64,000 nucleotides of DNA from Dehalococcoidia bacterium (GTDB taxonomy: Bacteria > Chloroflexota > Dehalococcoidia > Lucifugimonadales > UBA3495): the NCBI GenBank assembly GCA_965115955.1, contig OZ220473.1:2389463-2453462 (forward strand), in the 5' to 3' direction. Every line of letters starts with the position of its first letter. The first letter of the stretch is position 1. A program made the position numbers and the translations under genes. Of the stretch, positions 7,588 to 45,371 are shown piece by piece. Below the pieces are notes generated by a model, which was not told where the DNA came from, ran no database searches, and was given only the letters and a program-made list of their open reading frames with translations.

Positions 7588-8399
7588 GGGAGGCCGTTGG
7601 TTGCAGCGAGGAATCCGTCGATCAAGGCTGGACTGGAGCAGATGACGCTGGGGCTGAACAGGCCGGCTTCATTGCCCTGCCGGTCTACGATGCGGCCTCC
7701 GGCTTCCTGGGCCAGGATCAGCCCGGCGGCGATGTCCCATGGCGACAGAGAGTGATGGAAGAACAGGTCTACTCTTCCCGATGCGGCATAGGCCACGCCC
7801 AGGCCGGCGGAACCCATCAGCCTCACGCTGTACATCCCCGGCCAAAGGGAGCGGAGCATGTCCAGAGCCAGCCCCGCCTTTTCGTCTACGTAGCCAAGGT
7901 CGCAACTGAGCAGGCAGCGGGACAGATTGGTGGTCCGGGAAACCTCGATCGGTTCCCCGTTCAGAAAGGCGCCCTGTCCCTGCGCTGCGGTGAATGTCTC
8001 CTCCCGCACTGGGTCATAAATAACCCCCGCGATGATTTCGTCGCCCTTCGCCAACGCCGCAATGGTGCAGAAGTGGGGGATGCTATGGGCGTAGTTGCGG
8101 GTGCCGTCCAGAGGGTCCACGATCCAGCGATAAGGGGACAATCCGGCCACCGGTTGCGATTCCTCAGCCAGAATGCCGAATTCGGGGAAGGCTCCAGTAA
8201 GAATTTCCAGCACGGCCTTCTCCGCAGCCACGTCGATGTCGGTGACGATGTCGGCGCGGCCTTTGAAGGTTATCTGTTTGTCCGAGTTCCACCCGTTGCG
8301 GATGATCTCGCCCGCCGTGCGGGTCGCCTCCAGAGCGATGTCCATTGCGCTCCGCCCGTCGGCTGTAGTGGGCAGAGCGCTGGCTGATTGTTCGGTCAT
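7569..8399 (-). CDS. inositol monophosphatase family protein
   Basis: 276 aa. ILAEES and WIVDPLDGTRNYAHSIP motifs. The overlapping plus-strand ORF 7563-8387 is antisense noise. Confidence 0.85.
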   Translation of the reverse strand: MTEQSASALPTTADGRSAMDIALEATRTAGEIIRNGWNSDKQITFKGRADIVTDIDVAAEKAVLEILTGAFPEFGILAEESQPVAGLSPYRWIVDPLDGTRNYAHSIPHFCTIAALAKGDEIIAGVIYDPVREETFTAAQGQGAFLNGEPIEVSRTTNLSRCLLSCDLGYVDEKAGLALDMLRSLWPGMYSVRLMGSAGLGVAYAASGRVDLFFHHSLSPWDIAAGLILAQEAGGRIVDRQGNEAGLFSPSVICSSPALIDGFLAATNGLPWRTAA

Positions 8400-13605: not shown

Positions 13606-14122
13606 TCCTCAGACTAAGATGATTACGGAAGGCGCACTATTCAGTTCATTGGCAAGAAAGAATGAATAAAAGCCAAAGTCTGAAAGGTCCCGGGCTCGGT
13701 TTAATCGTTAGGCAGGATGCTGTCGAGCCTGGATAAAGGCGCGGCCCGGTACCGCAGTTGGCGCAAACCCCCGTGCATTTATTGAAGCCCCGGCCTGGGT
13801 CAAGCCTTTGGGGCAAGTTGGGCCGATATCCGGCGATTCGGCGCGTTTCCTGTTCCGCCAGGCAGGAAATACTGCATAACGGTTTCCCGCTGCGTCGTCT
13901 ACTATAACCCGGCTGCTCTTGATGCTGCCGTGTATCTGAGATGCGAATTTTGCGGATTTTCTCGTTTTATCCCGGCAGACGCAGCCGGTCCGCTTCAGTT
14001 GGTCAGGGGAATGCAGCCCTGCTCCCTCAAGGCCATGAATGGGTGTGTATGCCTGGGCGGCTTTTTCGCCGCAGCGCGCCGTTACGCTCGTCCGCCGAAG
14101 CCCCCGTAACGCAAGCACAAGT

Positions 14123-14152
14123 CAAAGGGGCGGCCCGGATGCCGCCCCTTTG
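14123..14152 (-). terminator. conserved GC hairpin of the family 3' unit (copy A)
   Basis: CAAAGGGGCGGC-CCGGAT-GCCGCCCCTTTG with perfect 12-bp arms. There is no clear U-tract. Confidence 0.5.
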
Positions 14153-14276
14153 ATTTGCCAGCGAACCGGCTTTAACGCTTTATCAACGGGGGAACGCTCC
14201 CGCCGCGCCCCGGCTCTATGATCCCGCTTCAGCTACCTCTGCGGGAGTGGGAGAACGCTCCCGCCGCGCCCCGGCT

Positions 14277-15413
14277 CTATTCGAGGAACACCAGGTTCAT
14301 GCCCGGATACAGCGTTACGCCCCGAAACTCGACCGGCGTTTCCCCGCTGATGATGATCACCACTATCTGGCCGGCGGAAACCCTGTCCAGCGTGTTCAGC
14401 CCCTCGCCCTTCAGCTCCGGGTCGTAGAACCGCCACGTCTGGGCTGCCGATGCCAGATGCCAGACCCGCGCCAGCCGCGGCCCCAACACGCCGAACACCG
14501 CCGACGGCTCGCCGAACGGCGCGGCTGTCGGCGTCGGAGTGACCGCCGGCGCAGCCGTCGGCATCGACGTGGCTGTCGGAGCGCCGACGGGCAGCAGCGT
14601 CGGCGTCGGCCCCCTGTCCGCCCTCGACGAACCTGTCCGCGTCGGCGTGTTCGTGTTCGGCGGCGTGGTGGCAGCGGCCGCGCTCGACGAACCTGCCGGT
14701 GTGGCCGTGTTCGTGTTCGGCGGCGTGGTCGCCGTTGGCGTGTTCGACGGCATCGGCGAACCTGCCGGCGCCGGCGTATGTGTTGGCGTAGGCGTGGCTG
14801 TCGGCGTATGCGTCGGCGTCGGCGTGGCCGTCGGCGTGTTCGTCGGCGCCGGTGTGTTCGTGGGCGTGTTCGTCGGCGCCGGTGTGTTCGTGGGCGTGTT
14901 GGTCGGCCCGGGGGTGTTGGTCGGCCCGGGCGTGTTGGTGGCCGTGGGCGCTGGCGACGCCTGCACAACTACTGTTATGCTGTAGCTTGCGCTTCCGGGT
15001 GTAGTACCGGCGAGGGTGTGTGAACCGACCGTCAGCGTTTCGTCTCGGACTGGTTCGCCATAATCTGTCGGCGTAAATTGCAGGCGCACCCTGACGGAGG
15101 AGACGCCATACGGCACGGTGATGGTTGCCTTGCTCATTGAATTCCGGACGGCGGAGTAACCGGAGACGCTCCGGAAATTGGCGCGTGGGTCACGGTTTGG
15201 TATTGAAACTACGCTCGCGGAAGTCTTCCCAACGCTAATAAGTACCTGCGGACTGAAGCCTGGCACCGGCGTATAGGTGTTCCCCGGCTGCGCGCTCACG
15301 GCCTGGGGCGACGCCGATTCATGGAAAAGGAAGACGGCGACAAACGCCATCGCGGCGATGGCGGCCAGGGCGATGCCAATCGGCTTGCGGTTGATACGCC
15401 GCAGGGCGCTCAT
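14277..15413 (-). CDS. paralog family member A: secreted protein with one beta-rich module, PT-rich stalk and conserved C-terminal domain
   Basis: 378 aa. Signal/anchor [24 protein letters not shown].., [12 protein letters not shown] and 2x [10 protein letters not shown] repeats, C-terminus ..[61 protein letters not shown]. The upstream leader ATG is out of frame in this copy. Confidence 0.85.
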
Positions 15414-15511
15414 CAGCGCAGCGCCAAACCCGGAATGCTGCCGGGGGGGGGGGGGGGGGTACTCCCTCTGGATCTGTTACCGTTACTCGTGCGGAGCTTG
15501 TCTGGCATCAT
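15413..15511 (-). other. leader ORF of member A (32 codons) carrying the poly-C tract, with stop overlapping the main ATG
   Basis: ATGATGCCAGACAAG.. preceded by GGAGATGGTGAAAG. It reads [35 protein letters not shown]. The A of that TGA (15413) is the A of the main ATG. Confidence 0.5.
15443..15459 (-). repeat. homopolymeric tract G17 (C17 on the coding strand)
   Basis: Counted directly. 18 nt lie between the conserved GGAGTA and GCAGCATT flanks. Confidence 0.95.
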
Positions 15512-15619
15512 TAACTTTCACCATCTCCGAATTTCAGCCCCCGGCCAGGGAATGCCTGGAATAAGGATGCCTGATGCAGCGGTCGCAGACGCCCTGGCCC
15601 GACGCCTGTGACTGGAGCC

Positions 15620-15648
15620 AGTATATTACCTCATAGGCCAGCAGTCAA
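15620..15648 (-). promoter_or_regulatory. sigma70-type promoter of member A (TTGACT-17-TATACT)
   Basis: Minus-strand -35 at 15643-15648 and -10 at 15620-15625. Conserved in 5 of 6 copies. Palindrome CAACATCC-N9-GGATGTTG abuts the -35. Confidence 0.6.
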
Positions 15649-15753
15649 CATCCTATGCCGCCGGATGTTGCGAACGGAAGACGCGGCCGGAAGAGCGCCA
15701 TGCAGGTCAACGGCGTCGAGCAGACGGCCGAAGCCCCCGTAAGGCAAGCGCAA

Positions 15754-15787
15754 GTTGAAGGGGCGGCCCGGATGCCGCCCCTTCAAC
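15754..15787 (-). terminator. conserved GC hairpin of the family 3' unit (copy B)
   Basis: GTTGAAGGGGCGGC-CCGGAT-GCCGCCCCTTCAAC with 14-bp arms. Confidence 0.5.
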
Positions 15788-15848
15788 CTGCCAGCGAACC
15801 GGCTTTAACGCTTTATCAACGGGGGAACGCTCCCGCCGCGCTCCGGCT

Positions 15849-18062
15849 CTATTCGAGGAACACCAGGTTCATGCCCGGATACAGCGTTACGCCCCGAAAC
15901 TCGACCGGCGTTTCCCCGCTGATGATGATCACCACTATCTGGCCGGCGGAAACCCTGTCCAGCGTGTTCAGCCCCTCGCCCTTCAGCTCCGGGTCGTAGA
16001 ACCGCCACGTCTGGGTTGCCGATTCCAGATGCCAGACCCTCACCAGCCGCGGCCCCAGCCCCCCGAACACTGCCGACGGCGAGCCGAACGGCGCGGCTGT
16101 CGGCGTCGGCGTGACCGCCGGCGCAGCCGTCGGCATCGACGTGGCTGTCGGCGCGCCGACGGACAGCAGCGTCGGCGTCGGCCCCCTGTCCGCCCTCGAC
16201 GAACCTGTCCGCGTCGGCGTGTTCGTGTTCGGCGGCGTGGTGGCAGCGGCCGCGCTCGACGAACCTGCCGGTGTGGCCGTGTTCGTGTTCGGCGGCGTGG
16301 TGGCCGTTGGCGTGTTCGACGGCACAGGCGAACCTGTCGGCGCCGGCGTATGCGTTGGCGTCGGAGTGGCCGTCGGCGTGTGCGTTGGCGTCGGAGTGGC
16401 CGTCGGCGTGTGCGTCGGCGTCGGAGTGGCCGTCGGCGTATGCGTCGGAGTCGGAGTGGCCGTCGGCGTGTGCGTTGGCGTCGGAGTGGCCGTCGGCGTA
16501 TGCGTCGGAGTCGGAGTGGCCGTCGGCGTGTGCGTTGGCGTCGGAGTGGCTGTCGGCGTATGCGTCGGCGTCGGAGTGGCTGTCGGCGTATGCGTCGGCG
16601 TCGGAGTGGCTGTCGGCGTATGCGTCGGCGTCGGAGTGGCCGTCGGCGTGTTGCTGGGCGCGTTCGTTGGCGCCGGGGTGTTGGTGTTGGTCGGCGCTGG
16701 GGTATTGGTGGGCGCCGGGGTGTTCGTCGGCGCTGGCGTATTGGTTGGCTCTGGCGTATTGGTTGGCTCTGGCGTGTTCGTGGGCGCTGGGGTATTGGTG
16801 GGCGCCGGGGTGTTAGTCGGCGCTGGGGTGCTGGTGGGCGCCGGGGTGTGCGTGCTGGTGGGCGCCGGCGGCGGCGTGTTGGTGGGCGTTGGCGTGTTGG
16901 GCGACGCTTGCACAACTACCGTTATGCTGTAGTTCTCGCCTTGGGGTTTAGCGTCGGTGGCGGGCGTTTTGCCGGAGACGGTGTTCTCGCCGACATTCAG
17001 TGTTACGTCCCGGGGTATGTCGCCCGCCGCTACCGGCGTCCAACGCAGGCGCACCCGCACGGAGGATACCCCATACGGCACGGTGATGGTTACCTTGTCA
17101 CGGTTATTCCGGACGCCGCTGAAATTGTCGGCTAACTCACGTGATGGTATCGCAACTGCGCTGCCGGTGTGTTTCCCAACGCTGATAACCACCTTGGGAG
17201 CGTTCGCCGCCGTCTGCACAGCTACCACTATGCTGTAGTTTCCGCCTGGCAGTTTGCCGGTGAGGGTGTGCTCGCCGACCGCCAGTGTTACGTCCCGGGG
17301 CGTGTCGCCCGGCGCTGCCGGCGTCCATTTCAGGCGCACCCGCGCAGAGGAGACCCCATCCGGCAGAGTGATGGTTACCCTGTTTCCGTTGGGACGGGGG
17401 GCCTGGGCGGCCTTGAAATTATCTGATGCTACCGCATTTACTACACTGGCGGTGTCTTTCCTAACGTTGATAACCACCTGGGGAGTTGGCGCTGGCGTGG
17501 CCGTTGGCGCTGGCGTGGAGGTGATTGTCGTTCCGGCTGTGGCTGTGAAGAAGAATTCTGTATCAACATTCCCGCAGCCGCTGGCTCGAATCCTGAGCCT
17601 GTATCTTTTGCCTGCGGTCAACCCCGGCGCGGTGAAACTTCCAGGGCTCGAGTACAGGCCCTGCCCAGGGGAGGCTCCGTTCAAATCAATGACGGGTTGA
17701 GCAACGGAGTCTTCATACAATGCGCTGAAATGAGTATCGGACGAGCAGCCCGGCCCTTTCTGCCAGGTTATGGTCGCTGCGGTGCCGGCGCCGTTGATGA
17801 CCACCTTGGTGACGATCGCATTCCTGGAGGCCTGAGCGCTCACGGGCTGTGGCGACGCTGATTCATGGATCAGCAGGACAGAGACGAGCGTCAGCGCCAC
17901 GGCGGCGGCGGCCAGGGCGGTCCCGATCAGCTTGCGGTCGATGCCGCGCAGGATGCCCATCATCGCAGCGCCAGCCCTGGAATGCTGCGGGAGGGGGGGG
18001 GGGGGGGTGCTCCCTGGGGATTTGTCAGCTCTACGCGGGCGGAACTTGTCTGGCATCATCAA
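15849..18062 (-). CDS. paralog family member B: FN3-like N-domain, 2 beta-rich modules, long PT-repeat stalk, conserved C-terminal domain
   Basis: 737 aa. The leader ATG is fused in frame through the poly-Pro tract ([45 protein letters not shown]..). An alternative internal start lies at 17963. Two about 95-aa modules (..[29 protein letters not shown]). Confidence 0.85.
16345..16644. repeat. 10 x 30-nt in-frame tandem repeat ([10 protein letters not shown] unit)
   Basis: Unit GGCGT[A/G]TGCGT[T/C]GG[C/A]GTCGGAGTGGC[C/T]GTC repeated head-to-tail. There are no spacers. Confidence 0.9.
17993..18007 (-). repeat. homopolymeric tract G15 (C15 then TCCC on the coding strand, 19 nt between conserved flanks)
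   Basis: Counted directly. Confidence 0.95.
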
Positions 18063-18166
18063 CTTTCACCATCTCCGAATTTCAGCCCCCGGCCAGGGAA
18101 TGCCTGGAATAAGGATGCCTGATGCAGCGGTCGCAGACGCCCTGGCCCGACGCCCAAGACTGGCAT

Positions 18167-18195
18167 AGTATATTACCTCATAGGCCAGCAGTCAA
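18167..18195 (-). promoter_or_regulatory. promoter of member B (TTGACT-17-TATACT)
   Basis: Minus-strand -35 at 18190-18195 and -10 at 18167-18172. The same unit as in A, E and F. Confidence 0.6.
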
Positions 18196-18313
18196 CATCC
18201 TCTGCCGCCGGATGTTGCGAACGGAAGACGCGGCCGGAAGTTACCGCCGGAAGAGCGCCATGCAGGTCAACGGCGTCGAGCAGGCGGCCGAAGCCCCCGT
18301 AAGGCAAGCGCAA

Positions 18314-18347
18314 GTTGAAGGGGCGGCATCCGGGCCGCCCCTTCAAC
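18314..18347 (-). terminator. conserved GC hairpin of the family 3' unit (copy C), loop inverted relative to A and B
   Basis: GTTGAAGGGGCGGC-ATCCGG-GCCGCCCCTTCAAC. Confidence 0.5.
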
Positions 18348-18408
18348 TTGCCAGCGAACCGGCTTTAACGCTTTATCAACGGGGGAACGCTCCCGCCGCG
18401 CCCCGGCT

Positions 18409-19914
18409 CTATTCGAGGAACAACAGGTTCAGGCCCGGATACAGCGTTACGCCCCGAAACTCGACCGGCGTTTCCCCGCTGATGATGATCACCACTATCT
18501 GGCCGGCGGAAACCCCGGTCAGCGTGTTCATCCCCTCGCCTCGCAGCTCCGGGTCGTAGAACAGCCACGTCTGGGTTGCCGATTCCAGATGCCAGACCCG
18601 CACCAGCCGCGGCTCCAGCCCGCCGAACACTGCCGACGGCTCGCCGTCCGGCGTGACCGTCGGCGTTGGCGTAGCCTTTGGCATCGGCGTAGCTGTCGGC
18701 GCCGGTGTGCTGGCGGGCAGCAGCGTCGGCGTCGCTTCCCCCGTGGCAGGCCGCGACAAACCTATAGGCGTGGGCGTGTTCGTCGGCATAGTGGCCATGG
18801 GTGCGTTGGCGGGCGCCGTGGCGGCAGGGGGTGCGTTGGTCGGCATCGGCGTGCTGGTGGGCGCCGTTGTGGGGGTGGAGCTTTGCTCTGTGGGGGCGGC
18901 TCCATAGCCGGCGGGGTTGACGGCGCGGACCTGGAAAGCATACGCCGTGCCGTTGGTGAGGCCGGTGACTTCGTGGGAGGCGGTGTCTTTGTCGGAGCTG
19001 GGGATGTTTGTCCAGTCTCCGTAGGTTCGTCCGCCCCGCTTGCTGCGGTACTGCCAGCGGGTGATGGTATCGTCCCCGGGGTCGGTCCATCTGAGGGTTA
19101 CTTTGCCGGCGCCGGCGGTGGCGGAGAAGCCGGCGGGAGCGGCGGGGGCTGCCGTGGGGCTGGGCGACGAGGCTGAGACGAAGAACTGGATGTTGTTCGA
19201 AAATGCCCGCCAGCCTGGCCTTACGAAGCCGCCCAAAGCGTTGGGCTCTATATTGAGGCTAGATGTATATGTGCGCTCGTTGGTGAGGCCCGTCTGTATA
19301 TATGATCTCGTGGCGAAGTTTGTTGCGCCAGAGGGTATGAGAGTCCTTGCGCCCCAGTTTTCGCTTCCTCTCTTGAAGGCGATGCTCCAACTCTCGAACG
19401 CAGGAGAGGGGGCTGTGGGGCCGCTTAGCTCCCATCTGATGGTTGCCTGCCCGTTGCCGGCGGTTACGAAGAGGGTTATTAATGGGGCGGTAGGGGTTGC
19501 GGTTGCCTCTGCGGAGGCAACGCCGGCGCCGGTGGAGTTTCTAGCGCGAATCTTGAACCGGTGGGCAACGCCGGCGGCGAGGCCGGTTATCTCGACGCTG
19601 GTAGTGTCCTTGTGGGAGTTGGGAATCTCGGCCCAGGCACCGTAATCGGCGGTTCCCACTTTCTGCTGATATTCGTAGTAGTCGATGGTGTCGTTGTTGG
19701 GGTTGGTCCAGGCGAGGGTTGCCTTGCTGGGACCGGCGGTGGCGGTGAGCCCGGTTGGGGCAGCAGGGGTGGAGGCCTGGCCGGAGAGGGACGCAGGAAT
19801 GGATGCGCCGACTCGTCCAGAGGGGAAGAGGCTCATCGCGAGGATGAGGGCGATGAGAGCGGCGGCCAGGGGCATGCCGATCAGCTTGCGGTCGATGCTG
19901 CGCAGGATGCTCAT
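18409..19914 (-). CDS. paralog family member C: FN3-domain secreted protein with short PT stalk and conserved C-terminal domain
   Basis: 501 aa. [25 protein letters not shown].. anchor. FN3 signatures ([33 protein letters not shown]; [29 protein letters not shown]). C-terminus ..[61 protein letters not shown]. Confidence 0.85.
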   Translation of the reverse strand: MSILRSIDRKLIGMPLAAALIALILAMSLFPSGRVGASIPASLSGQASTPAAPTGLTATAGPSKATLAWTNPNNDTIDYYEYQQKVGTADYGAWAEIPNSHKDTTSVEITGLAAGVAHRFKIRARNSTGAGVASAEATATPTAPLITLFVTAGNGQATIRWELSGPTAPSPAFESWSIAFKRGSENWGARTLIPSGATNFATRSYIQTGLTNERTYTSSLNIEPNALGGFVRPGWRAFSNNIQFFVSASSPSPTAAPAAPAGFSATAGAGKVTLRWTDPGDDTITRWQYRSKRGGRTYGDWTNIPSSDKDTASHEVTGLTNGTAYAFQVRAVNPAGYGAAPTEQSSTPTTAPTSTPMPTNAPPAATAPANAPMATMPTNTPTPIGLSRPATGEATPTLLPASTPAPTATPMPKATPTPTVTPDGEPSAVFGGLEPRLVRVWHLESATQTWLFYDPELRGEGMNTLTGVSAGQIVVIIISGETPVEFRGVTLYPGLNLLFLE

Positions 19915-19943
19915 CAGCTAACCTCTATTCCGGAGAATCCTGC

Positions 19944-19958
19944 GGGGGGGGGGGGGGG
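19944..19958 (-). repeat. homopolymeric tract G15 (C15 on the coding strand) in the diverged leader of member C
   Basis: Counted directly. It lies inside an upstream ORF (..MKPHNIRSHRLSDTRESTPPPPRRILRNRG-TAG) that stops 3 nt before the main ATG. Confidence 0.95.
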
Positions 19959-20106
19959 TAGATTCTCTGGTATCTGATAACCGGTGCGAGCGGATGTTGT
20001 GTGGCTTCATTGCTTTTGCCCCTATGATGTCAGGATTACAGGCTTTGCCCATCCGATGCCTGGAAAGGGACGGTTGGCCGGCGCCCGCGCTGCCTGCTAC
20101 CAAATC

Positions 20107-20135
20107 AGTTTACTCCCGCAGGGGGCAGCAGTCAA
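20107..20135 (-). promoter_or_regulatory. promoter of member C (TTGACT-17-TAAACT)
   Basis: Minus-strand -35 at 20130-20135 and -10 at 20107-20112. A diverged version of the family promoter. Confidence 0.5.
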
Positions 20136-20232
20136 CGCCTGCGGACGGCGCAGATTTCCGTTTTTGCGGGATCGTTTTGCGGAATCGAAGGGGCGGCCCA
20201 CTCACGCCGCCCCCTGATGGTTTTCCGTCCGG

Positions 20233-20427
20233 TTATGCGGCCGCAGGCAACTGCTCGTTCTCCTCAAGCCAGACCGGGGCCGCCGGCCTGGGCCTGGCGG
20301 GCGTCGCAGGCTTGCTCTCCACGTCGCGCATCAGCCCGCACTGGAGGCAGCTCAAGAAGCTCCCGTAGCTGTCGCGGCTCAGCATAACGTCGCCCTGGCA
20401 CTTGGGACACGCGCCGAAGTATATCAT
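20233..20427 (-). CDS. small zinc-ribbon protein
   Basis: 64 aa. CPKC..17 aa..CLQC. Strong [14 protein letters not shown] 5 nt upstream of the ATG. Confidence 0.6.
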   Translation of the reverse strand: MIYFGACPKCQGDVMLSRDSYGSFLSCLQCGLMRDVESKPATPARPRPAAPVWLEENEQLPAAA

Positions 20428-20631
20428 AGAACACCTCCTCTCCCTGCGCGCTGGCGGCGCCGGGAGCCGCTCCTGGCGGTTTTATCCCCGCCTATCCCTG
20501 AAATCCGGCGGCCTTGAGCAGGTTTCCGCATTGAACGGAATCCCGGCGAAATGGACTGCCGCCGCTTTCATTCCCAATTGCTACGCCGGCTGAGTGATAT
20601 TGGATTCTTAATCTGCCGCGCCCCATACAGC

Positions 20632-20660
20632 TTGACACTTCATGTATCAAACCCTATCAT
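20632..20660 (+). promoter_or_regulatory. promoter of hspR-grpE-dnaK (TTGACA-17-TATCAT) with overlapping imperfect inverted repeat
   Basis: -35 at 20632-20637 and -10 at 20655-20660. TTGACAC-N5-GTATCAA (20632-20650) is a possible HspR operator with only a weak match to the HAIR consensus. Confidence 0.55.
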
Positions 20661-20700
20661 ATACATCAGAACAGGTCAATAGATTCAGAGGATATGAAGC

Positions 20701-21192
20701 ATGGCCCAGCAACGGCGTGTCCAGACGAAGCAGCAGACGGCGCGGGAGACCATTCCCGAGGGAGAAACGCCATCCCGCCCTGCGGACACGTCGATAATGC
20801 CTGCCGACCAGGGGCAGCGCCCAGGCAGGGAAGACGACGCCTTGATTGCGATGGAAGGCGTCTACATCATCAGCGTGGCCGCCCGGATTCTGGACATGCA
20901 CCCCCAAACGCTGCGGAAGTATGAGCGTCTGGGGCTTGTGAGGCCCGGCAGAACCCTGGGTATGCTCCGGCTGTACTCCAGAGAAGACATCCGGAAGCTG
21001 CGTCTCATCCGCCGCCTGTCCGACGAGATGGGGCTCAACCTCGCGGGGGTGGAGTTCGCCCTCGCCACGGTGCAGAATCTCCTCACGATGAAGCAGAGGC
21101 TGGCAGCCCGGATGGGGCCGGAAGCCGCCGAAGCGGTGGCCGAGGAACTGACTCTGCTTTTCCAAAGCCTTAACCTTCCCGTTGACCAGTGA
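20701..21192 (+). CDS. hspR: MerR-family heat-shock regulator (HspR-like)
   Basis: 163 aa. MerR HTH (YIISVAARILDMHPQTLRKYERLGLVRPGRT..RLYSREDIRKLRLIRRL). Directly upstream of grpE-dnaK. Confidence 0.65.
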   Translation: MAQQRRVQTKQQTARETIPEGETPSRPADTSIMPADQGQRPGREDDALIAMEGVYIISVAARILDMHPQTLRKYERLGLVRPGRTLGMLRLYSREDIRKLRLIRRLSDEMGLNLAGVEFALATVQNLLTMKQRLAARMGPEAAEAVAEELTLLFQSLNLPVDQ

Positions 21193-21235
21193 AATCCCCA
21201 CGGGGCAATCAGGAATTTTTCGAAGGAACAATTTG

Positions 21236-21862
21236 ATGTCCGACAAACAAGAACCGGGACCGGAACTGGGTCCAAAGGACGACAGCGCCCTGGGAAAGGC
21301 GGGCGAAACCGGGAATGGAGGCGCCGCGCCCGACGATGCGGCGGGTTTCGAGGAACTGACGCCGGAACTGAAAGCGGCGGCTTTGACGGAACGGGTTTTG
21401 ACGGAAAGACTGGAAGCCGCCGAAGCGGAAGCCGAAAAGTTCCGCAAAGAGGTCCAGTACAAGGAGGCCGAGCTGCAGACCCAGCGGCGCCGCTTTGCCG
21501 AGGAGCGCGCCGCCGCCGCCAGATACCGGGACGAAGACCTCCTCATCGACCTGCTCCCGGTCATTGAAGGGCTGGAACTGGCCCTGAATGCGGACTTCTC
21601 AGACCAGTGGGGCAAGGGCGTCAGGCTGGCCGTCCGGGAAATGAAGCGCTGCCTAGAAAGGCGGGGCGTGAGCCTGATCGACGATGCGGTCGGCCAGCCC
21701 TTTGACCCCAATGAACACGAGGCCCTGGCCCGGCAGGAGTCGGCGGAGCAGCCGCCAGACCACGTGATACAGCTGATCAGACCCGGCTACAGGCTGCATG
21801 ACCGCCTTCTTCGGGCCGCCCAGGTGATTGTGGCCCGCCCGCCGGAAAGCGGAGCAGCCTGA
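21236..21862 (+). CDS. grpE: nucleotide exchange factor GrpE
   Basis: Coiled-coil N-terminus followed by ..LLPVIEGLELAL.. and ..FDPNEHEAL..GYRLHDRLLRAAQVIV. ATG 21236 is preferred over the track start 21182. Confidence 0.88.
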   Translation: MSDKQEPGPELGPKDDSALGKAGETGNGGAAPDDAAGFEELTPELKAAALTERVLTERLEAAEAEAEKFRKEVQYKEAELQTQRRRFAEERAAAARYRDEDLLIDLLPVIEGLELALNADFSDQWGKGVRLAVREMKRCLERRGVSLIDDAVGQPFDPNEHEALARQESAEQPPDHVIQLIRPGYRLHDRLLRAAQVIVARPPESGAA

Positions 21863-21944
21863 ACACCCGGCCGGATGCCCCCGCAGGAATTCAGGAACCA
21901 TACTGCACAGTTGGACCAGATTATCATCTTAAGGAGAAGCAGAG

Positions 21945-23849
21945 ATGCCTAAAGTATTGGGCATAGACCTGGGAACCACCAACTCAGTCGCCGCCGTAAT
22001 AGAAGCAGGAGAACCGGGCGTTGTGGATAACGCAGAGGGCGCGCGTCTTACGCCGTCGGTGGTGGCGCTGAACACCCGCACCGGAGAGCGGTACGTAGGC
22101 CAGGTAGCCAAGCGCCAGGCGGTAACCAACCCGGAGAACACGCTGTTCTCCGTCAAGCGGCTGATGGGCCGCCGCTACGACGAGCCCGAGGTGCAGAGCG
22201 CCGCCGCCAAGCTCCCGTACCAGGTAGTGCCGGCGGCCAACGGCGACGCCCACGTCAAGATGGGGGAAGACATCTATGCCCCCCCGCAGATTTCATCCTT
22301 CATTCTGGCCAAAATCAGGCAGGACGCCGAAGCCAGGCTGGGAGAGCGCGTTACCCAGGCGGTCATCACTGTTCCCGCGTATTTCAACGACTCGCAGCGT
22401 CAGGCCACCAAGGACGCCGGCACCATCGCCGGCCTGGAAGTGCTGCGCATCATCAACGAGCCTACAGCCTCGTCCCTGGCCTATGGGCTGGACAAAACCC
22501 GCACCGACGCCAACATCGCCGTGTTCGACCTGGGCGGCGGCACCTTCGACATCACCATCCTGCAAATGGGCGAGGGCGTGTTCGAGGTCAAATCCACCAA
22601 CGGAGACACCTTCCTGGGGGGCGACGACTTCGATCAGGCCGTTCTGGACTGGCTGATCACAGAATTCCGCCGCGAGACGGGAATCGACCTTTCCGCGGAT
22701 CGCATGGCCCTGCAGCGCTTGCGCGACGCCGCAGAACGGGCCAAGGTGGAGCTCTCCAGCGTGGTCGAGACCGAGATCAACCTGCCGTTCATCACCGCCG
22801 ACGCCAGCGGGCCGCAGCACCTGGTGAAGTCGCTCACCAGAGGCCGGTTCGAGCAACTGGTCAGCCCTCTGATAGAACGCACCGCCGGGCCGTGCCAGCG
22901 GGCGCTGGCCGATTCAGGCCTGCCCGCCAGCCAGATCGACGAAGTAATCATGGTGGGCGGCATGTCCCGGATGCCGGCGGTGCAGGAGAAGGTCAAGCAG
23001 ATCTTCGGCAGGGAACCCAACCGCAACGTTAACCCCGACGAAGCAGTGGCTCTGGGAGCCGCGATCCAGGCCGGAGTGCTGGCCGGCGAAGTCGGCGATA
23101 TCGTGCTGCTGGACGTGACCCCCCTGACGCTGGGGCTGGAGACGCTGGGCAGCGTGATGACCACGCTCATCCCGCGCAATACCACCATACCGACGAAGGC
23201 GAACGAGACCTTCACGACTGCCGCCGACAGCCAGACGACCGTGGACATCCACGTGCTGCAGGGCGAGCGGAGCATGGCCGGAGACAACAAATCCATAGGG
23301 CGTTTCATGCTGGACGGCATCCTTCCGGCGCCCAGAGGCATCCCCCAGATCGACGTGACCTTCGACATAGACGCCAACGGCATCCTGAGCGTTTCCGCCC
23401 AGGACAAGGGCACCGGCAAGGAACAGCGCATCGTCATCCAGTCCGGTTCCGGCATGGATAAGACGGACATCGACCGGATGGTGGAGGAAGCCCGCCAGTA
23501 TGAGGCGGAAGACGTGAAGCGGCGGGCCGAGGTGGATACCCGCAACCAGGCCGACTCCATGGTGTATCAGGCCGAAAAGATGCTGAACGACAACGCCGAA
23601 AGCGTGCCGCAGGACCTGCGCTCGGACGTCCAGAGCAGGATCGACGCGCTTAAGGCCGCATCGGCTTCCGGCAGCGTGCCCGAGATGCAGACGGCCATCA
23701 ACGAGCTGAATGCTGCGCTGCAGCGTCTGGGCGAGGTTGTCTACAGCCGGAACACAGCCCAGAGCTCCGGCGCCCCCAGCCCCGGCGCCGGCGAAGCCGA
23801 ACCGCCCGACGACGCTGGCACCGTGGAGGGCGAATTCCGCGAAGTCTGA
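21945..23849 (+). CDS. dnaK: molecular chaperone DnaK (Hsp70)
   Basis: 634 aa. [17 protein letters not shown] and the full Hsp70 layout. Confidence 0.98.
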
Positions 23850-24103
23850 CCCTCTGCCGCACTGGGGCGGCCTTCAGCGGCAGTCCCCGAAAACGAACCG
23901 AAAACGAAACGGAGGGGCGCAAGTCCAATACCGGCTTGTTTCCCTTCCTTCCCCCAGGGTACTTCCTCCAGGATAATTCGTTCAGGAGAAGGTTAAATAA
24001 ACCGGGGGCGGCTTCCCAGACCAATTCCGAACGGAGCTATTCTTTGGTACAATGAGGCACAGGATTTGGGCGCAGCTTCAGGAACAACTGGGCGCACCCT
24101 CGG

Positions 24104-24445
24104 TTGAAAACGGACGGTGAACTCATGAATGCGCAGCCAGAACGAGCAGACAGAGAAGTATTGGGAGATGAGGGCGACTTCGCGCCTTCCATCGTCAACC
24201 CCGCAGTAAATCAGTGGCGGGTGGAAGGCGTAGACCTCGACCTTACCCCCCTGCAGCATCACTATCTGAGCCTGATGAAGCGCCTTATTGCGCTGAAGGA
24301 ACAGTATCAGGCCGACCCGGACGGCGAAGACTGGATGACGGCAGCCATCAGCAAGTCGATATTCTCGACCCTCCGGGACTGCATCGAGGCCAATGTGGGC
24401 GAGGAAGCCAAAGATCTGCTCAACCCCAGGCAACGGGTCGACTGA
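24104..24445 (+). CDS. hypothetical acidic protein
   Basis: 113-aa ORF. Extended -10 TGGTACAAT about 60 nt upstream. No family recognised. The start could be ATG 24125. Confidence 0.4.
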   Translation: MKTDGELMNAQPERADREVLGDEGDFAPSIVNPAVNQWRVEGVDLDLTPLQHHYLSLMKRLIALKEQYQADPDGEDWMTAAISKSIFSTLRDCIEANVGEEAKDLLNPRQRVD

Positions 24446-24492
24446 CTCGCTGCCGGAGTGTCCCTGAATCAGTCGGCCCCGGCCACAGGATG

Positions 24493-24521
24493 TTGACTGC
24501 TGGCCTCTGCGGTAATATACT
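24493..24521 (+). promoter_or_regulatory. promoter of member D (TTGACT-17-TATACT)
   Basis: -35 at 24493-24498 and -10 at 24516-24521. The left palindrome arm is absent in this copy. Confidence 0.6.
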
Positions 24522-24626
24522 GTCCCAGTCTTGGGAGTCGGGCCAGAGCTCCTGCGACTGCTGCATCAGGCATCCTTTCCAGGCATTCCCTGGCCGGGGG
24601 CTGAAATTCGGAGATGGTGAAAGTTA

Positions 24627-26915
24627 ATGACGCCAGACAAGTTCCGCCGGAGTAGAGCCGACAAATCCCCAGGGAGTACCCCCCCCCCCCCCCCGCAGCA
24701 TTACGGGCCCGGCGCTGCGATGATGGGCATCCTGCGCGGCATCGACCGCAAGCTGATCGGGATGGCCCTGGCCGCCGCCCTCATCTCCGCCCTCATCCTC
24801 GCGATGAGCCTCCTCCCCTCTGGGCGAGTCGGCGCATCCATTCCTGCTTCCCTCTCCAGCCAGGCCTCCACTCCCGCCGCCCCAACCGGCTTCACCGCCT
24901 CTGCCGGCCAAAGCAGAGTAAACCTCGCCTGGACCAACCCCGGCAACGCCACCATCGACTACTGGGAATACCAGCAGAAAGTGGGAGACGCCAACTACGG
25001 CTCCTGGGCCGAGATCCCCAACTCCCACAAAGACACCACCTGGGCCGAGATAACCGGCCTCGCCGCCGGCGTCGCCCACAAGTTCAAAATCCGCGCCAGG
25101 AACTCCGCCGGCAATGGCGCCGCGTCCGCAGAAGCGACCGCAACCCCCTCCGCACCGTCCCTGAGGCTCTTCGCAACCGCCGGCAACGGACAGGTAACCC
25201 TCAAATGGGAACTCTCCGGCCCCTACGCAGTGATTACGACGTGGAAAACTTGGGAATACAGCCTCTTTGAAGGTAACTCGTGGTCCAACCCGCTAAAGAT
25301 ATGCAGACAAGTTGAAAGTGGATCATGCCCCGGCGTCAGAACACATACCGTGTCCGGCCTCACCAACGGAAAAGAGTACCAGGTTGAAGTCAGCCTGACC
25401 CCCACCAGCCTCGCCAATGGGCTTGGAGACTTCGACGGGTTTTCAAACGCAGTGACATTCACCCCTTCGGCTTCGGCGCCCGTACCGGCGGGAACCCCCG
25501 CCGCCCCCGCCGGCTTTACCGCCAACGCCGGCGGCAGCAAAGTAACTCTCAGCTGGACCGACCCCGGCGACGAAACCATCGAAAACTGGCAGTACCGCAG
25601 CAAGCGAGGCGGACGCACCTACGGAGACTGGATAGAGATATCCAGCTCCGACAAAGACACCACCAGCCACGAAGTCACCGCTCTCACCAACGGCACGGCG
25701 TATGCTTTCCAGGTTCGCGCGGTCAACGGCGCCGGCTACGGAGCCGCCCCTGCAGAACAGAGCGCCACCCCAGCCCTCCCGCCAACCAGCACACCAACGC
25801 TGACACCAACCAACACCCCAATGCCAACATCGACCAACACGCCGGAGCCGACCAACACCAGCACGCCCACGCCAACATCGACCAACACGCCGGAGCCGAC
25901 CAACACCAGCACGCCCACGCCAACATCGACCAACACGCCGGAGCCGACCAACACCAGCACGCCCACGCCAACATCGACCAACACGCCGGAGCCGACCAAC
26001 ACGCCCACGCCAACATCGACCAACACGCCGGAGCCGACCAACACGCCCACGCCAACATCGACCAACACGCCGGAGCCGACCAACACGCCCACGCCAACAT
26101 CGACCAACACGCCGGAGCCGACCAACACGCCCACGCCAACATCGACCAACACGCCAGCGCCAACGAACGCGCCCTCCAACACGCCGGAGCCGACCAACAC
26201 GCCCACGCCAACATCGACCAACACGCCGGAGCCGACCAACACGCCGACGGCCACTCCGACTCCGACGCATACGCCGACAGCCACGCCGACGCCGACGCAT
26301 ACGCCGACGGCCACTCCAACGCCGACGCACACGCCGACAGCCACTCCGACGCCGACGCACACGCCGACAGCCACTCCGACGCCAACGCATACGCCGGCGC
26401 CGGCAGGTTCGCCGATGCCGTCGAACACGCCAACGGCGACCACGCCGCCGAACACGAACACGGCCACACCGGCAGGTTCGTCGAGCGCGGCCGCTGCCAC
26501 CACGCCGCCGAACACGAACACGCCGACGCGGACAGGTTCGTCGAGGGCGGACAGGGGGCCGACGCCGACGCTGCTGTCCGTCGGCGCGCCGACAGCCACG
26601 CCGATGCCAACGGCTGCGCCGATGCCGACGGCTGCGCCGGCGCCGGCGGACACGCCGATGCCGACGGTCACGCCGGACGGCGAGCCGTCGGCGGTGTTCG
26701 GGGGGCTGGGGCCGCGGCTGGCGAGGGTCTGGCATCTGGAATCGGCAACCCAGACGTGGCGGTTCTACGACCCGGAGCTGCGAGGCGAGGGGCTGAACAC
26801 GCTGACCGGGGTTTCCGCCGGCCAGATAGTGGTGATCATCATCAGCGGGGAAACGCCGGTCGAGTTTCGGGGCGTAACGCTGTATCCGGGCATGAACCTG
26901 GTGTTCCTCGAATAG
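24627..26915 (+). CDS. paralog family member D: FN3-domain secreted protein with long PT-repeat stalk and conserved C-terminal domain
   Basis: 762 aa. Leader ATG fused in frame ([43 protein letters not shown]..). Alternative start at 24720. The N-terminal about 150 aa are roughly 85% identical to member C. Confidence 0.85.
24679..24694 (+). repeat. homopolymeric tract C16
   Basis: Counted directly. Confidence 0.95.
25824..26390. repeat. composite in-frame tandem repeats: 48-nt units, then 42-nt units, then 5 x 30-nt units (26241-26390)
   Basis: Encodes [16 protein letters not shown] x3, [14 protein letters not shown] x4 or more, and [10 protein letters not shown] x5. Confidence 0.85.
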
Positions 26916-26990
26916 AGCGGGGCTGCGACTGGAGCGTTCCCGTTGATAAATTCCCCCGTTGATAAAGAAGTAAAGCCGGTTCGCTGGCAG

Positions 26991-27024
26991 GTTGAAGGGG
27001 CGGCATCCGGGCCGCCCCTTCAAC
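26991..27024 (+). terminator. conserved GC hairpin of the family 3' unit (copy D)
   Basis: GTTGAAGGGGCGGC-ATCCGG-GCCGCCCCTTCAAC. Confidence 0.5.
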
Positions 27025-27143
27025 TTGCGCTTGCCTTACGGGGGCTTCGGCCGTCTGCTCGACGCCGTTGACTTGCATGGCGCTCTTCCGGCGGTAACTC
27101 CCGGCCGCGTCTTCCATTTCGCAACATCCGGCGGCATAGGATG

Positions 27144-27172
27144 TTGACTGCTGGCCTATGAGGTAATATACT
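27144..27172 (+). promoter_or_regulatory. promoter of member E (TTGACT-17-TATACT) with CAACATCC-N9-GGATGTTG palindrome (27122-27146) overlapping the -35
   Basis: Direct reading. Confidence 0.6.
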
Positions 27173-27279
27173 ATGCCAGTCTTGGGCGTCGGGCCAGGGC
27201 GTCTGCGACCGCTGCATCAGGCATCCTTATCCCAGGCATTCCCTGGCCGGGGGCTGAAATTCGGAGATGGTGAAAGTTA

Positions 27280-29214
27280 ATGATGCCAGACAAGTTCCGC
27301 CCGCGTAGAACTGACAAATCCCCAGGGAGTACCCCCCCCCCCCCCCCCCCGCAGCATTCCAGGGCCGGCGCGGCGATGATGGGCATCCTGCGCGGCATCG
27401 ACCGCAAGCTGATCGGGACGGCCCTGGCCGCCGCCGTGGCGCTGACGCTCGTCGCTGTCCTGCTGATCTACGAATCAGCGTCGCCACGGCCCGTGAGCGC
27501 TCAGGCCTCCAGGAATGCGATCGTCACCAAGGTGGTCATCAACGGCGCCGGCACCGCAGCGACCATAACCTGGCAGAAAGGGCCGGGCTGCTCGTCCGAT
27601 ACTCATTTCAGCACAGTGCATGAAGACTCCCTTGCTCAACCCGTCATTGATTTGAACGGAGCCTCCCTTGGGCAGGGCCTGTACTCGACCCCTGGAAGTT
27701 TCACCGCGCCGGGGTTGACCCCAGGCAAAAGATACAGGCTCACGATAAAAGCCACCGGCTGCGGGAGGGTTGATACACGCTTCTTCTTCACAGCCACAGC
27801 CGGAACGACAATCACCTCCACGCCAGCGCCAACGGCCACGCCAGCGCCAGCTCCCCAGGTGGTTATCACCATCAGTAAGGACGCCGGCAGTGCCGGCAGT
27901 ATAGTGACTGCGTTGGCATCAGATAATTTCAAGGTCGCCCAGGCCCCCCGTCCCAACGGAAACAGGGTAACCATCACTCTGCCGGATGGGGTCTCCTCTG
28001 TGCGGGTGCGCCTGAGATGGACCCCGGCAGCGTCGGGCGACACGCCCCGGAACGAAACACTGGCGGTCGGCGAGCACACCCTCACCGGCACAACGCCCGC
28101 CACCAGCACTAATCCCGATGGCGTAGACTACAGCATAGCGGTAGCTGTGCAGACGGCGGCGAACGCTCCCAAGGTGGTTATCAGCGTTGGGAAACACACC
28201 GGCAGCGCAGTTGCGATACCATCACGTGAGTTAGCCGACAATTTCAGCGGCGTCCGGAATAACCGTGACAAGGTAACCATCACCGCGCCGTATGGGGTAT
28301 CCTCCGTTCGGGTGCGCCTGCAATGGACGCCGGTAGCGGCGGGCGACATACCCCGGGACGTAACACTGAATATCGGCGAGAACACCGTCTCCGGCAAAAC
28401 GCCCGCCACCGACGCTAAACCCCAAGGCGAGAACTACAGCATAACGGTAGTTGTGCAAGCGTCGCCCAACACGCCAACGCCCACCAACACGCCGCCGCCG
28501 GCGCCCACCAGCACGCACACGCCAGCGCCCACCAGCACCCCAGCGCCGACCAACACCAACACCCCGGCGCCGACCAATACGCCAGCGCCCACGAACACCA
28601 ACACGCCGGCGCCCACCAATACCCCAGCGCCAACCAGCACGCCGGCGCCCACCAATACCCCAGCGCCAACCAGCACGCCAGCGCCGACCAACACGCCAGC
28701 GCCAACCAGCACGCCGGCGCCCACCAATACGCCAGCGCCGACGAACACCCCGGCGCCCACCAACACGCTTACACCGACAGGTTCGCCGATGCCGTCGAAC
28801 ACGCCAACGGCCACCACGCCGCCGAACACGAACACGGCCACACCGACAGGTTCGCCGATGCCGTCGAACACGCCAACGGCCACCACGCCGCCGAACACGA
28901 ACACGGCTACACCGACAGGTTCGCCGGCGGCTACGTCGGCGCCGGCAGTCACGCCGACGCCGACAGCCGCGCCGTCCGGCTCGCCGTCGGCGGTGTTCGG
29001 CGTGTTGGGGCCGCGGCTGGCGAGGGTCTGGCATCTGGCATCGGCAACCCAGACGTGGCGGTTCTACGACCCGGAACTGAGCATCGAGGGGATGAACACG
29101 CTGGACAGGGTTTCCGCCGGCCAGATAGTGGTGATCATCATCAGCGGGGAAACCCCGGTCGAGTTTCGGGGCGTAACGCTGTATCCGGGCCTGAACCTGG
29201 TGTTCCTCGAATAG
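27280..29214 (+). CDS. paralog family member E: FN3-like N-domain, 2 beta-rich modules, PT stalk, conserved C-terminal domain
   Basis: 644 aa. Leader fused in frame. Alternative start at 27376. The N-terminal about 470 aa are near-identical to F and similar to B. Contains a duplicated [23 protein letters not shown] block. Confidence 0.85.
   Translation: MMPDKFRPRRTDKSPGSTPPPPPPQHSRAGAAMMGILRGIDRKLIGTALAAAVALTLVAVLLIYESASPRPVSAQASRNAIVTKVVINGAGTAATITWQKGPGCSSDTHFSTVHEDSLAQPVIDLNGASLGQGLYSTPGSFTAPGLTPGKRYRLTIKATGCGRVDTRFFFTATAGTTITSTPAPTATPAPAPQVVITISKDAGSAGSIVTALASDNFKVAQAPRPNGNRVTITLPDGVSSVRVRLRWTPAASGDTPRNETLAVGEHTLTGTTPATSTNPDGVDYSIAVAVQTAANAPKVVISVGKHTGSAVAIPSRELADNFSGVRNNRDKVTITAPYGVSSVRVRLQWTPVAAGDIPRDVTLNIGENTVSGKTPATDAKPQGENYSITVVVQASPNTPTPTNTPPPAPTSTHTPAPTSTPAPTNTNTPAPTNTPAPTNTNTPAPTNTPAPTSTPAPTNTPAPTSTPAPTNTPAPTSTPAPTNTPAPTNTPAPTNTLTPTGSPMPSNTPTATTPPNTNTATPTGSPMPSNTPTATTPPNTNTATPTGSPAATSAPAVTPTPTAAPSGSPSAVFGVLGPRLARVWHLASATQTWRFYDPELSIEGMNTLDRVSAGQIVVIIISGETPVEFRGVTLYPGLNLVFLE
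27332..27350 (+). repeat. homopolymeric tract C19
   Basis: Counted directly. Confidence 0.95.
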
Positions 29215-29278
29215 AGCCGGGGCGCGGCGGGAGCGTTCCCCCGTTGATAAAGCGTTAAAGCCGGTTCGCTGGCAAATC

Positions 29279-29306
29279 AGAGGGGCGGCCCGGATGCCGC
29301 CCCTTC
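29279..29306 (+). terminator. conserved GC hairpin of the family 3' unit (copy E)
   Basis: GAGGGGCGGC-CCGGAT-GCCGCCCCTTC. Confidence 0.5.
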
Positions 29307-29427
29307 AACTTGCGCTTGCCTTACGGGGGCTTCCGCCGTCTGCTCGACGCCGTTGACCTGCATGGCGCTCTTCCGGCGGTAACTTCCGGCCGCGTCTTCC
29401 GTTCGCAACATCCGGCGGCATAGGATG

Positions 29428-29456
29428 TTGACTGCTGGCCTCTGCGGTAATATACT
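29428..29456 (+). promoter_or_regulatory. promoter of member F (TTGACT-17-TATACT) with upstream palindrome
   Basis: -35 at 29428-29433 and -10 at 29451-29456. Confidence 0.6.
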
Positions 29457-29561
29457 GGCTCCAGTCACAGGCGTCGGGCCAGGGCGTCTGCGACTGCTGC
29501 ATCAGGCATCCTTATTCCAGGCATTCCCTGGCCGGGGGCTGAAATTCGGAGATGGTGAAAG

Positions 29562-32933
<3,372 letters not shown>

Positions 32934-32997
32934 AGCCGGAGCGCGGCGGGAGCGTTCCCCCGTTGATAAAGAGGTAAAGCCGGTTCGCTGGCAAATC

Positions 32998-33026
32998 AAA
33001 GGGGCGGCCCGGATGCCGCCCCTTTA
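32998..33026 (+). terminator. conserved GC hairpin of the family 3' unit (copy F)
   Basis: AAAGGGGCGGC-CCGGAT-GCCGCCCCTTT. Confidence 0.5.
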
Positions 33027-33040
33027 ACCCGCAGCCTGCG

Positions 33041-45334: not shown

Positions 45335-45371
45335 GCCGCTTCACGCACGCTATCGGCTCATGGCCGGTTTC

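Follow-up and report, generated by a model that had tools for sequence, protein, structure and literature searches.

Poly-C leader tracts as a putative three-position frame switch in six surface-protein genes of a Dehalococcoidia bacterium

The locus described here raises the question of whether a gene whose short leader ORF ends on the start codon of the main ORF is silent, weakly expressed, or simply one position of a switch. The gene, copy A, is one of six neighbouring surface-protein genes (A to F) within the 64-kb stretch of DNA that was analysed, referred to below as the window. Each of the six has a run of 15 to 19 C near its 5' end that sets the reading frame. Copies A, B, and C lie on the minus strand and copies D, E, and F on the plus strand, and both triplets flank dnaK.

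Anatomy of copy A and its five paralogues

The features of copy A and the extents of the remaining copies are as follows.

15620..15648, minus strand: promoter-like site of copy A, TTGACT, 17 nt, TATACT; the same site occurs in the six-copy alignment
15518..15528, minus strand: Shine-Dalgarno (SD)-like GGAGATGGTGA of copy A, 6 nt 5' of the leader ATG; anti-SD duplex of -8.3 kcal/mol
15413..15511, minus strand: leader ORF of copy A, 32 codons plus TGA
15443..15459, minus strand: homopolymer tract of copy A, C17 on the sense strand (G17 on the plus strand), supplying five CCC proline codons
15411..15415, minus strand: TGATG of copy A, a one-base overlap of the leader stop TGA and the main ATG
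14277..15413, minus strand: main ORF of copy A, 378 aa, with a signal/anchor, one Ig-like domain, a Pro/Thr linker, and a 79-aa C-terminal module
14122..14153, minus strand: terminator-like hairpin 3' of copy A
15849..18059, minus strand: copy B, fused as assembled; tract at 17993-18007, C15 then TCCC (C19 with one T interrupting)
18409..20010, minus strand: copy C, with leader ORF 19918-20010, tract C15 at 19944-19958, and main ORF 18409-19914 with its own SD, AGAGGT
24627..26915, plus strand: copy D, fused; tract C16 at 24679-24694
27280..29214, plus strand: copy E, fused; tract C19 at 27332-27350
29565..32933, plus strand: copy F, fused; tract C16 at 29617-29632

The leader ATG of copy A occupies 15511-15509 of the minus strand, and 17 codons stand ahead of an ACC, which is followed by five CCC codons (T-P-P-P-P-P), nine codons, and the TGA. 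The TGA (15415-15413) and the main ATG (15413-15411) have the A at 15413 in common, and the main ORF extends for 378 codons to 14277 without an internal stop or frameshift. An earlier note on this DNA had described copy A as frame-off, with a 32-codon leader whose TGA shares the A of the main ATG and with at least five consecutive prolines; the minus-strand sequence agrees on each of these points, with the C17 tract exact. C17 is the count in the assembly, and a homopolymer of 17 nt can be off by one even in a good long-read consensus. Leaders of the other copies hold four to seven consecutive prolines, again all encoded by CCC, and so every leader, if translated, carries a polyproline motif of at least three residues.

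A scan of the window for G or C runs of 15 to 19 nt returned six, and every other run was at most 7 nt in length. Based on composition (62.5% GC), about 0.002 runs of at least 15 C or G would be expected in 64 kb, and six are well outside what chance allows. All six long runs are held by the homologous site in the six paralogues, and their lengths (C17 in A, C15 to C19 across the copies) exceed the threshold of roughly 8 to 9 nt for a hypermutable homopolymer. An Illumina poly-G artefact was ruled out for these tracts, which are internal, occupy homologous sites, and are found on both strands. An exact 25-mer of the conserved 5' UTR had 0 matches in the genome and metagenome contig collections, and hence no independent assembly of the locus was recovered there. 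Elsewhere in the 64-kb window, no frameshift-broken genes were seen, and stop-to-stop ORF coverage was 90%, as for a clean consensus. An SBP_bac_5 gene at 45340-47078 (minus strand) is broken by an in-frame stop (QLPIMA*AAQAMLSD), after which the same frame continues for about 150 codons; it is nonsense-interrupted and not a homopolymer frameshift. In addition, the gene triplets form a quasi-palindrome around dnaK at 14234-33028 (C matching D, B matching E and F, and the 3' end of A matching F). The inverted arms reach 907 nt at 93% identity and are therefore a substrate for gene conversion or for inversion of the dnaK segment.

Every copy has a sigma-70-like promoter of its own, a 5' UTR of about 100 nt, and a terminator-like hairpin, and each is predicted to be its own transcription unit. 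The promoter-like TTGACT-17-TATACT is invariant in the six-copy alignment, save for TAAACT in copy C. An Rfam scan of the window returned only a tRNA and no family at the copies. An RNA structure involving the tract was ruled out: the tract is unpaired, native folds were worse than shuffles (z = +2.1), and almost no covariation was found. In E and C, the hairpin adjoining the main ATG is disrupted. A stretch of about 50 nt (CGGGGGCTTCGGCCGTCTGCTCGACGCCGTTGACCTGCATGG), located after the upstream terminator and before the promoter, is present at 15700-15790 and at equivalent positions 5' of B, E, and F. At 76-82% identity, it matches a segment some 2 kb 5' of dnaK in three related MAGs (L003 at 7949-7998, L004, and L005), and may be a remnant of an ancestral neighbour carried along in the duplications.

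The six products combine a basic and hydrophobic N-terminus with FN3 (E = 1e-23) or other Ig-like domains and long Pro/Thr linkers, and Pfam identified only fn3 and Ig-like domains. They are probably secreted or anchored surface proteins; by their domains, signal/anchor, and predicted localisation, they are the type of product encoded by phase-variable loci. The Pro/Thr linkers are built of in-frame tandem repeats whose copy number differs among the paralogues, and repeat number appears to add a second layer of length variation. Repeats of 30 bp, in frame, were located at 14772-14925, 16344-16649, 26241-26396, and 32163-32438, with unit numbers of about 2 (A), 10 (B), 5 (D), 9 (F), and 0 (E).

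Reading frame, start signals, and tract turnover

To follow the reading frame as a function of tract length, the 5' end of every copy was rebuilt in a simulation with C(n-2) to C(n+2). Three phases, identical in A, B, D, E, and F, were obtained: the leader is fused to the main ORF, its TGA overlaps the main ATG, or it overruns the main ATG out of frame. One C below the fused length, the leader TGA shares its A with the main ATG in all five copies, which is the state of copy A as assembled. One C above the fused length, the leader passes the main ATG by at least 92 nt in the wrong frame; in copy A, with C16 or C19, the leader is 63 to 64 aa long, and its 92-nt overrun of the main ATG is out of frame. 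Fusion of the copy A leader and main ORF was obtained with C18 and with C15, as expected from the earlier proposal that a change of +1 or -2 C would join them. A change of one unit in the repeat alters the frame of the product, with the repeat lying inside a region whose translation is indicated by the SD and ATG of the leader.

Copy C behaves differently. Stops are present in all three frames, 13, 6, or 2 nt 5' of its main ATG, and thus its leader and main ORF can never fuse. That copy C retains C15 although frame changes cannot switch the gene hints at a role for the tract or the poly-Pro run beyond frame selection.

The sums of tract and spacer are 47 nt in B, 44 nt in D, 47 nt in E, and 44 nt in F, versus 46 nt in A. 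B, D, E, and F are accordingly fused in their assembled frames, as the earlier note had stated. Of the five copies that can fuse, four are in frame, compared to an expectation of one in three (binomial P = 0.045, for copies that are not fully independent); this argues for the fused frame as an "on" state under selection and against noise as the source of the assembled lengths.

Anti-SD duplex energies were computed over the 17 nt 5' of each start and calibrated on random 17-mers of the window, which had a mean of -3.4 kcal/mol and of which 5% reached -8.3; the start of dnaK gave -8.2. The leader ATGs of A, B, D, E, and F, each behind GGAGATGGTGA, gave -8.3 kcal/mol. The main ATGs of the same copies gave only -3.5 to -4.9 kcal/mol, with copy A at -3.7, the background level. 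In copy C the order is reversed, with -5.6 kcal/mol at the leader ATG and -8.5 kcal/mol at the main ATG (AGAGGT). Given a strong SD at the leader and none at the main ATG, ribosomes should load at the leader in five copies, and the main ORF of copy A in the C17 state would hardly be reachable except by reinitiation.

It is this asymmetry that makes the TGA/ATG overlap of copy A meaningful. A one-base stop/start overlap together with an SD-less downstream start is the classic geometry of termination-reinitiation. Copy A has both elements, as the leader stop overlaps the downstream start (TGATG, 15415-15411) and a weak downstream ribosome-binding site (-3.7 kcal/mol) follows an efficient upstream one (-8.3 kcal/mol). 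Termination-reinitiation would thus be the only obvious route to copy A protein in the C17 state. Where the start has no SD, reinitiation can be of very low efficiency, and the "low" state may then amount to "off". The earlier contrast of low, coupled expression with high, fused expression is strengthened by the difference in SD strength, but it missed the overrun phase, the existence of which gives the switch three positions rather than two.

Substitution counts among the copies revealed no coding constraint on the leader peptide, the Pro run aside; between A and F, 9.5 non-synonymous and 0.5 synonymous differences were counted in 17 codons. As the leader amino acids are unconserved, the case for leader translation draws on the SD and ATG together with the frame statistics and not on coding constraint. 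An unconstrained peptide fits a spacer that would be cleaved off or tolerated ahead of the signal/anchor sequence.

Length variation of the repeat was found between near-identical paralogues. The flanks of B, E, and F differ by 0 to 12 substitutions in 310 nt, and their tracts are C15(+TCCC), C19, and C16, respectively; hence, the tract changes faster than its surroundings. The flanks of copy C are about 36% diverged, and its C15 is still uninterrupted. For copy A against its paralogues, dN/dS was 0.45-0.86, a range compatible with a functional as well as a decaying copy. Among the ectodomains of B, E, and F (aa ~33-400), dN/dS was 1.3-2.0 at low divergence and from small counts, values compatible with diversifying selection on the surface-exposed part.

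Overall, we consider it probable that the six genes are slipped-strand contingency loci and that copy A was captured in the coupled (low or off) phase. A miscount or a modal call in the assembly would instead make copy A mostly C18 (or C15) and fused, with the off state an artefact or a subpopulation. Base calling is at its hardest in homopolymers of 15 to 19 nt, the remaining copies are in frame in four cases out of five, and the nearest relatives are long-read MAGs; DnaK assigns the window to Dehalococcoidia, with whole-chromosome, long-read MAGs as the best matches at 88-91% aa identity. We nevertheless regard this explanation as unlikely, since the rest of the window is free of frameshift-broken genes and the six tracts differ in length in well-resolved contexts. 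An error of one C in either direction would also threaten the four in-frame copies equally, yet in-frame lengths are enriched. Even if a miscount had occurred, the state of copy A would change and the mechanism would not.

Origin of the leader and parallels in related genomes

The 79-aa C-terminal module is conserved across the six products and was used to find a wider family. A word-indexed search with the module returned the window's own protein alone, its back-translated patterns had no match in genomes, and a protein search with the leader plus the N-terminal 172 aa found no homologue. An exhaustive HMM search with the module recovered 258 clusters, in which it almost always forms the very C-terminal end of proteins 500 to 2700 aa long with TIG, cadherin, or FN3 domains. 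Genomic loci were collected for 24 family members, all from Dehalococcoidia/Chloroflexi MAGs; for two of them, sponge Poribacteria had been recovered from the same sample series.

The N-terminus of the wider family (MNSxIGKSTGIALLMAAALLAALFAMGVFS) aligns with the main ATG of the window copies and not with the leader. A canonical SD, GAAAGGAGA, is located 8 to 10 nt 5' of the start in 24 of 24 loci, and neither a tract nor a leader ORF was found in any of the 24. The main ATG is therefore the ancestral start of the family, and the leader and tract are a lineage-specific graft and not an old N-terminus. Alignment with the wider-family 5' UTR identified common blocks, CCAGGGAG and TTCCCAG; the poly-C occupies the site of a small GC hairpin in the relatives, and the SD-bearing segment is absent from the window copies. 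The alignment hints that the leader grew out of the wider family's 5' UTR, and copy C, with its native-type SD, looks like an evolutionary intermediate.

Two further elements were observed in the wider family. A conserved 5' UTR block (AACCAGGCTCCAGGGAGCAGCGGGCTCGAGTGGCCCC, then TTCCC) occurs at about -95 to -35 relative to the start codon in many Dehalococcoidia MAGs (L081-L103) and is a possible operator or uncharacterised regulatory RNA. At L095 (400-700), tandem units of 37 to 39 nt, GGTTCTGGATTCCCGCCTGCGCGGGAATGAC, are followed by G6 to G10, and the units also occur in the 5' UTRs of L092, L094, and L099-L102; the small palindrome TTCCCGC…GCGGGAA is scattered in these loci. The units look like a REP-like repeat element of these genomes.

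Searching the dnaK neighbourhoods of 80 related loci with the six proteins (tblastn) gave no match, and the array is thus not syntenic in relatives. Long tracts were found there at other genes of related Dehalococcoidia MAGs. In L001 (OY730490.1, 1709-2965, minus strand), an upstream ATG opens a leader with a C35 at 2846-2880, encoding 12 Pro; the leader shares its frame with a gene for a GT2 glycosyltransferase, the conserved core of which lies about 90 codons further downstream. By its sequence, this locus appears to have the same design as the window copies, namely an upstream start, poly-C, and a native gene. In L005 (OZ241328.1, 1-3475), a C23 at 1866-1888 splits an Eco57I/MmeI-type restriction-methylase into two frames, with the AVGSGAFLF motif before the C23 and PF07669 and NPPY after it; the gene is off as assembled and is a candidate phase-variable RM enzyme. 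A G18 that terminates a short-read contig (L015, 15803-15820) probably arose as a poly-G artefact of sequencing or assembly rather than as a biological tract.

With these parallels, it is conceivable, though on the doubtful side, that a modular poly-C leader cassette (a strong SD and a short unconstrained ORF with 15 to 35 C) has been grafted before the native starts of different genes as a three-position switch. Its targets in this Dehalococcoidia lineage would be the six surface proteins of the window and the GT2 glycosyltransferase of a relative. Where the native ATG has lost its own SD and carries the TGA overlap, such a cassette would act as a stochastic high/low/off switch and not a binary one, and its output may be sensitive to EF-P or proline-tRNA status.

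An ancestral main ATG also bears on a second explanation, that the leader is a regulatory upstream ORF. Under this proposal, stalling on the five to seven CCC prolines, relieved by EF-P, tunes use of the main ATG or the fate of the mRNA, tract length is incidental, and the native protein always begins at the main ATG. Stalling at polyproline and its rescue by EF-P are established biology. The main ATG is the family-wide start, the leader peptide is unconstrained apart from the Pro run, and copy C keeps its leader and tract but ends the leader 2 to 13 nt before an SD-bearing main ATG, with no frame switching. The tract retained by copy C is the strongest point in favour of this proposal, as pure frame switching does not account for it. 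Five of the six main ATGs are without an SD, however, and a pure upstream-ORF model does not predict that four of five leaders are fused in frame. It also lacks a conserved RNA structure for a stalled ribosome to remodel, the ATG hairpin being broken in E and C. We judge this explanation improbable.

Candidate mechanism, counterparts, and significance

Reading frame could also be chosen during decoding, by slippage of RNA polymerase or by ribosomal -1/+1 slippage of tRNA-Pro, such that frames are mixed and the frame in the DNA is minor. CCC is present in every frame of the tract, and copy A would be fused by a shift of -1 or by a single additional C in the transcript. Shifting of tRNA-Pro on CCC-C under limiting m1G37 or EF-P is known (for example, PMC7577736, PMC4519876). 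The reported +1 shift, however, would place copy A in the overrun phase and not in the fused phase, and free mixing of frames would not account for the in-frame state of four of the five copies; this makes slippage in decoding a quite improbable main cause. Least probable of all is that copy A is a pseudogene in the making rather than in a reversible off state, for although it is the shortest copy with a single Ig-like domain, has 10 non-synonymous changes in the leader relative to B, E, and F, and has a dN/dS of up to 0.86, its 378 codons are open despite a dS of ~0.5 from the nearest domain homologues, it retains an intact promoter, SD, tract, TGATG, and terminator, and its dN/dS is not above that of the fused copies (1.3-2.0 for B/E/F).

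For the slipped-strand contingency loci that we favour, the sequence of events would be as follows. Ribosomes would load at the strong SD before a short leader ORF holding the 15- to 19-nt poly-C, and slipped-strand mispairing in replication would alter the tract by one C in either direction, independently in each gene. In phase 1, the strongly initiated leader would be fused as a basic N-terminal extension of the signal/anchor, and expression would be high. In phase 2, with one C fewer, the TGA would overlap the SD-less main ATG, reached solely by termination-reinitiation, and expression would be low. In phase 3, with one C more, leader ribosomes would read on through the main ATG in the wrong frame for 92 nt or more, and expression would be off. 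Copy A, at C17 as assembled, would be in phase 2, a single C insertion from phase 1. We infer, rather than read from the DNA, a useful rate of slippage, high output in phase 1, low output by reinitiation in phase 2, and a need of the poly-Pro run for EF-P; the sequence itself shows the gene anatomy, a frame logic of three phases, the unequal SDs, the differences in tract length among paralogues, and the derived leader.

In host-adapted pathogens, phase variation by means of simple repeats is textbook knowledge. The opa genes of Neisseria are a multi-copy surface family with CTCTT repeats in the leader-peptide coding region, a promoter for each copy, and slipped-strand frame switching. The window copies likewise each have their own promoter and a repeat tract in an N-terminal leader coding region. 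In contrast to the CTCTT pentamer, their repeat is a homopolymer, and their products are Ig/FN3 proteins with PT-linkers instead of beta-barrels. Furthermore, the tract belongs to a grafted leader that precedes the ancestral start, and one of the off-phases ends exactly on the native ATG. Membership in the Opa family was rejected, as there is no beta-barrel homology and no CTCTT repeat, and the likeness is an analogy of mechanism only.

In lic1/licA of Haemophilus influenzae, a repeat (CAAT) between an upstream start and the gene body selects the in-frame start, as the tract of the window copies would. The repeat there is a tetranucleotide and the target an LPS-modification operon, whereas here the targets are a surface-protein family. 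Graded levels of licA expression arise from alternative upstream ATGs; in the window copies, grading would come from stop/start coupling at the downstream ATG. In coupled operon genes with ATGA or TGATG, the overlap is fixed, whereas the window copies arrive at it in a single tract phase out of three.

Campylobacter, Helicobacter, and Neisseria carry homopolymeric G/C tracts within the 5' coding regions of surface and modification genes (PMC6321876, PMC2823697, PMC5084427), with restriction-modification methylases and glycosyltransferases among the phase-variable genes. The C23 within a methylase and the C35 before a GT2 gene in the relatives fit these gene classes. Tracts of those phasomes are typically 8 to 13 nt in low-GC, host-associated Proteobacteria and Campylobacterota; here they are 15 to 35 nt in a metagenome-only Chloroflexota lineage of 62% GC. 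No report of phase variation in Dehalococcoidia or Chloroflexi was found in the literature searched. The interpretation appears sound at the level of sequence: a well-known kind of switch, in a phylum without a published case in that literature. If the leader cassette exists, it would give Chloroflexota their first described contingency-locus system, possibly one of sponge-associated symbionts.

If the switch is real, uncultured and probably host- or particle-associated Dehalococcoidia would vary their surface stochastically through six independent switches and PT-repeat linkers, and relatives would put a glycosyltransferase and a restriction-methylase under the same kind of control. In long-read MAGs, the lengths of homopolymers would then be biologically informative and should not be "polished" into frame. 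Finally, the stop-on-start geometry would offer a simple design for a switch that is graded rather than binary.
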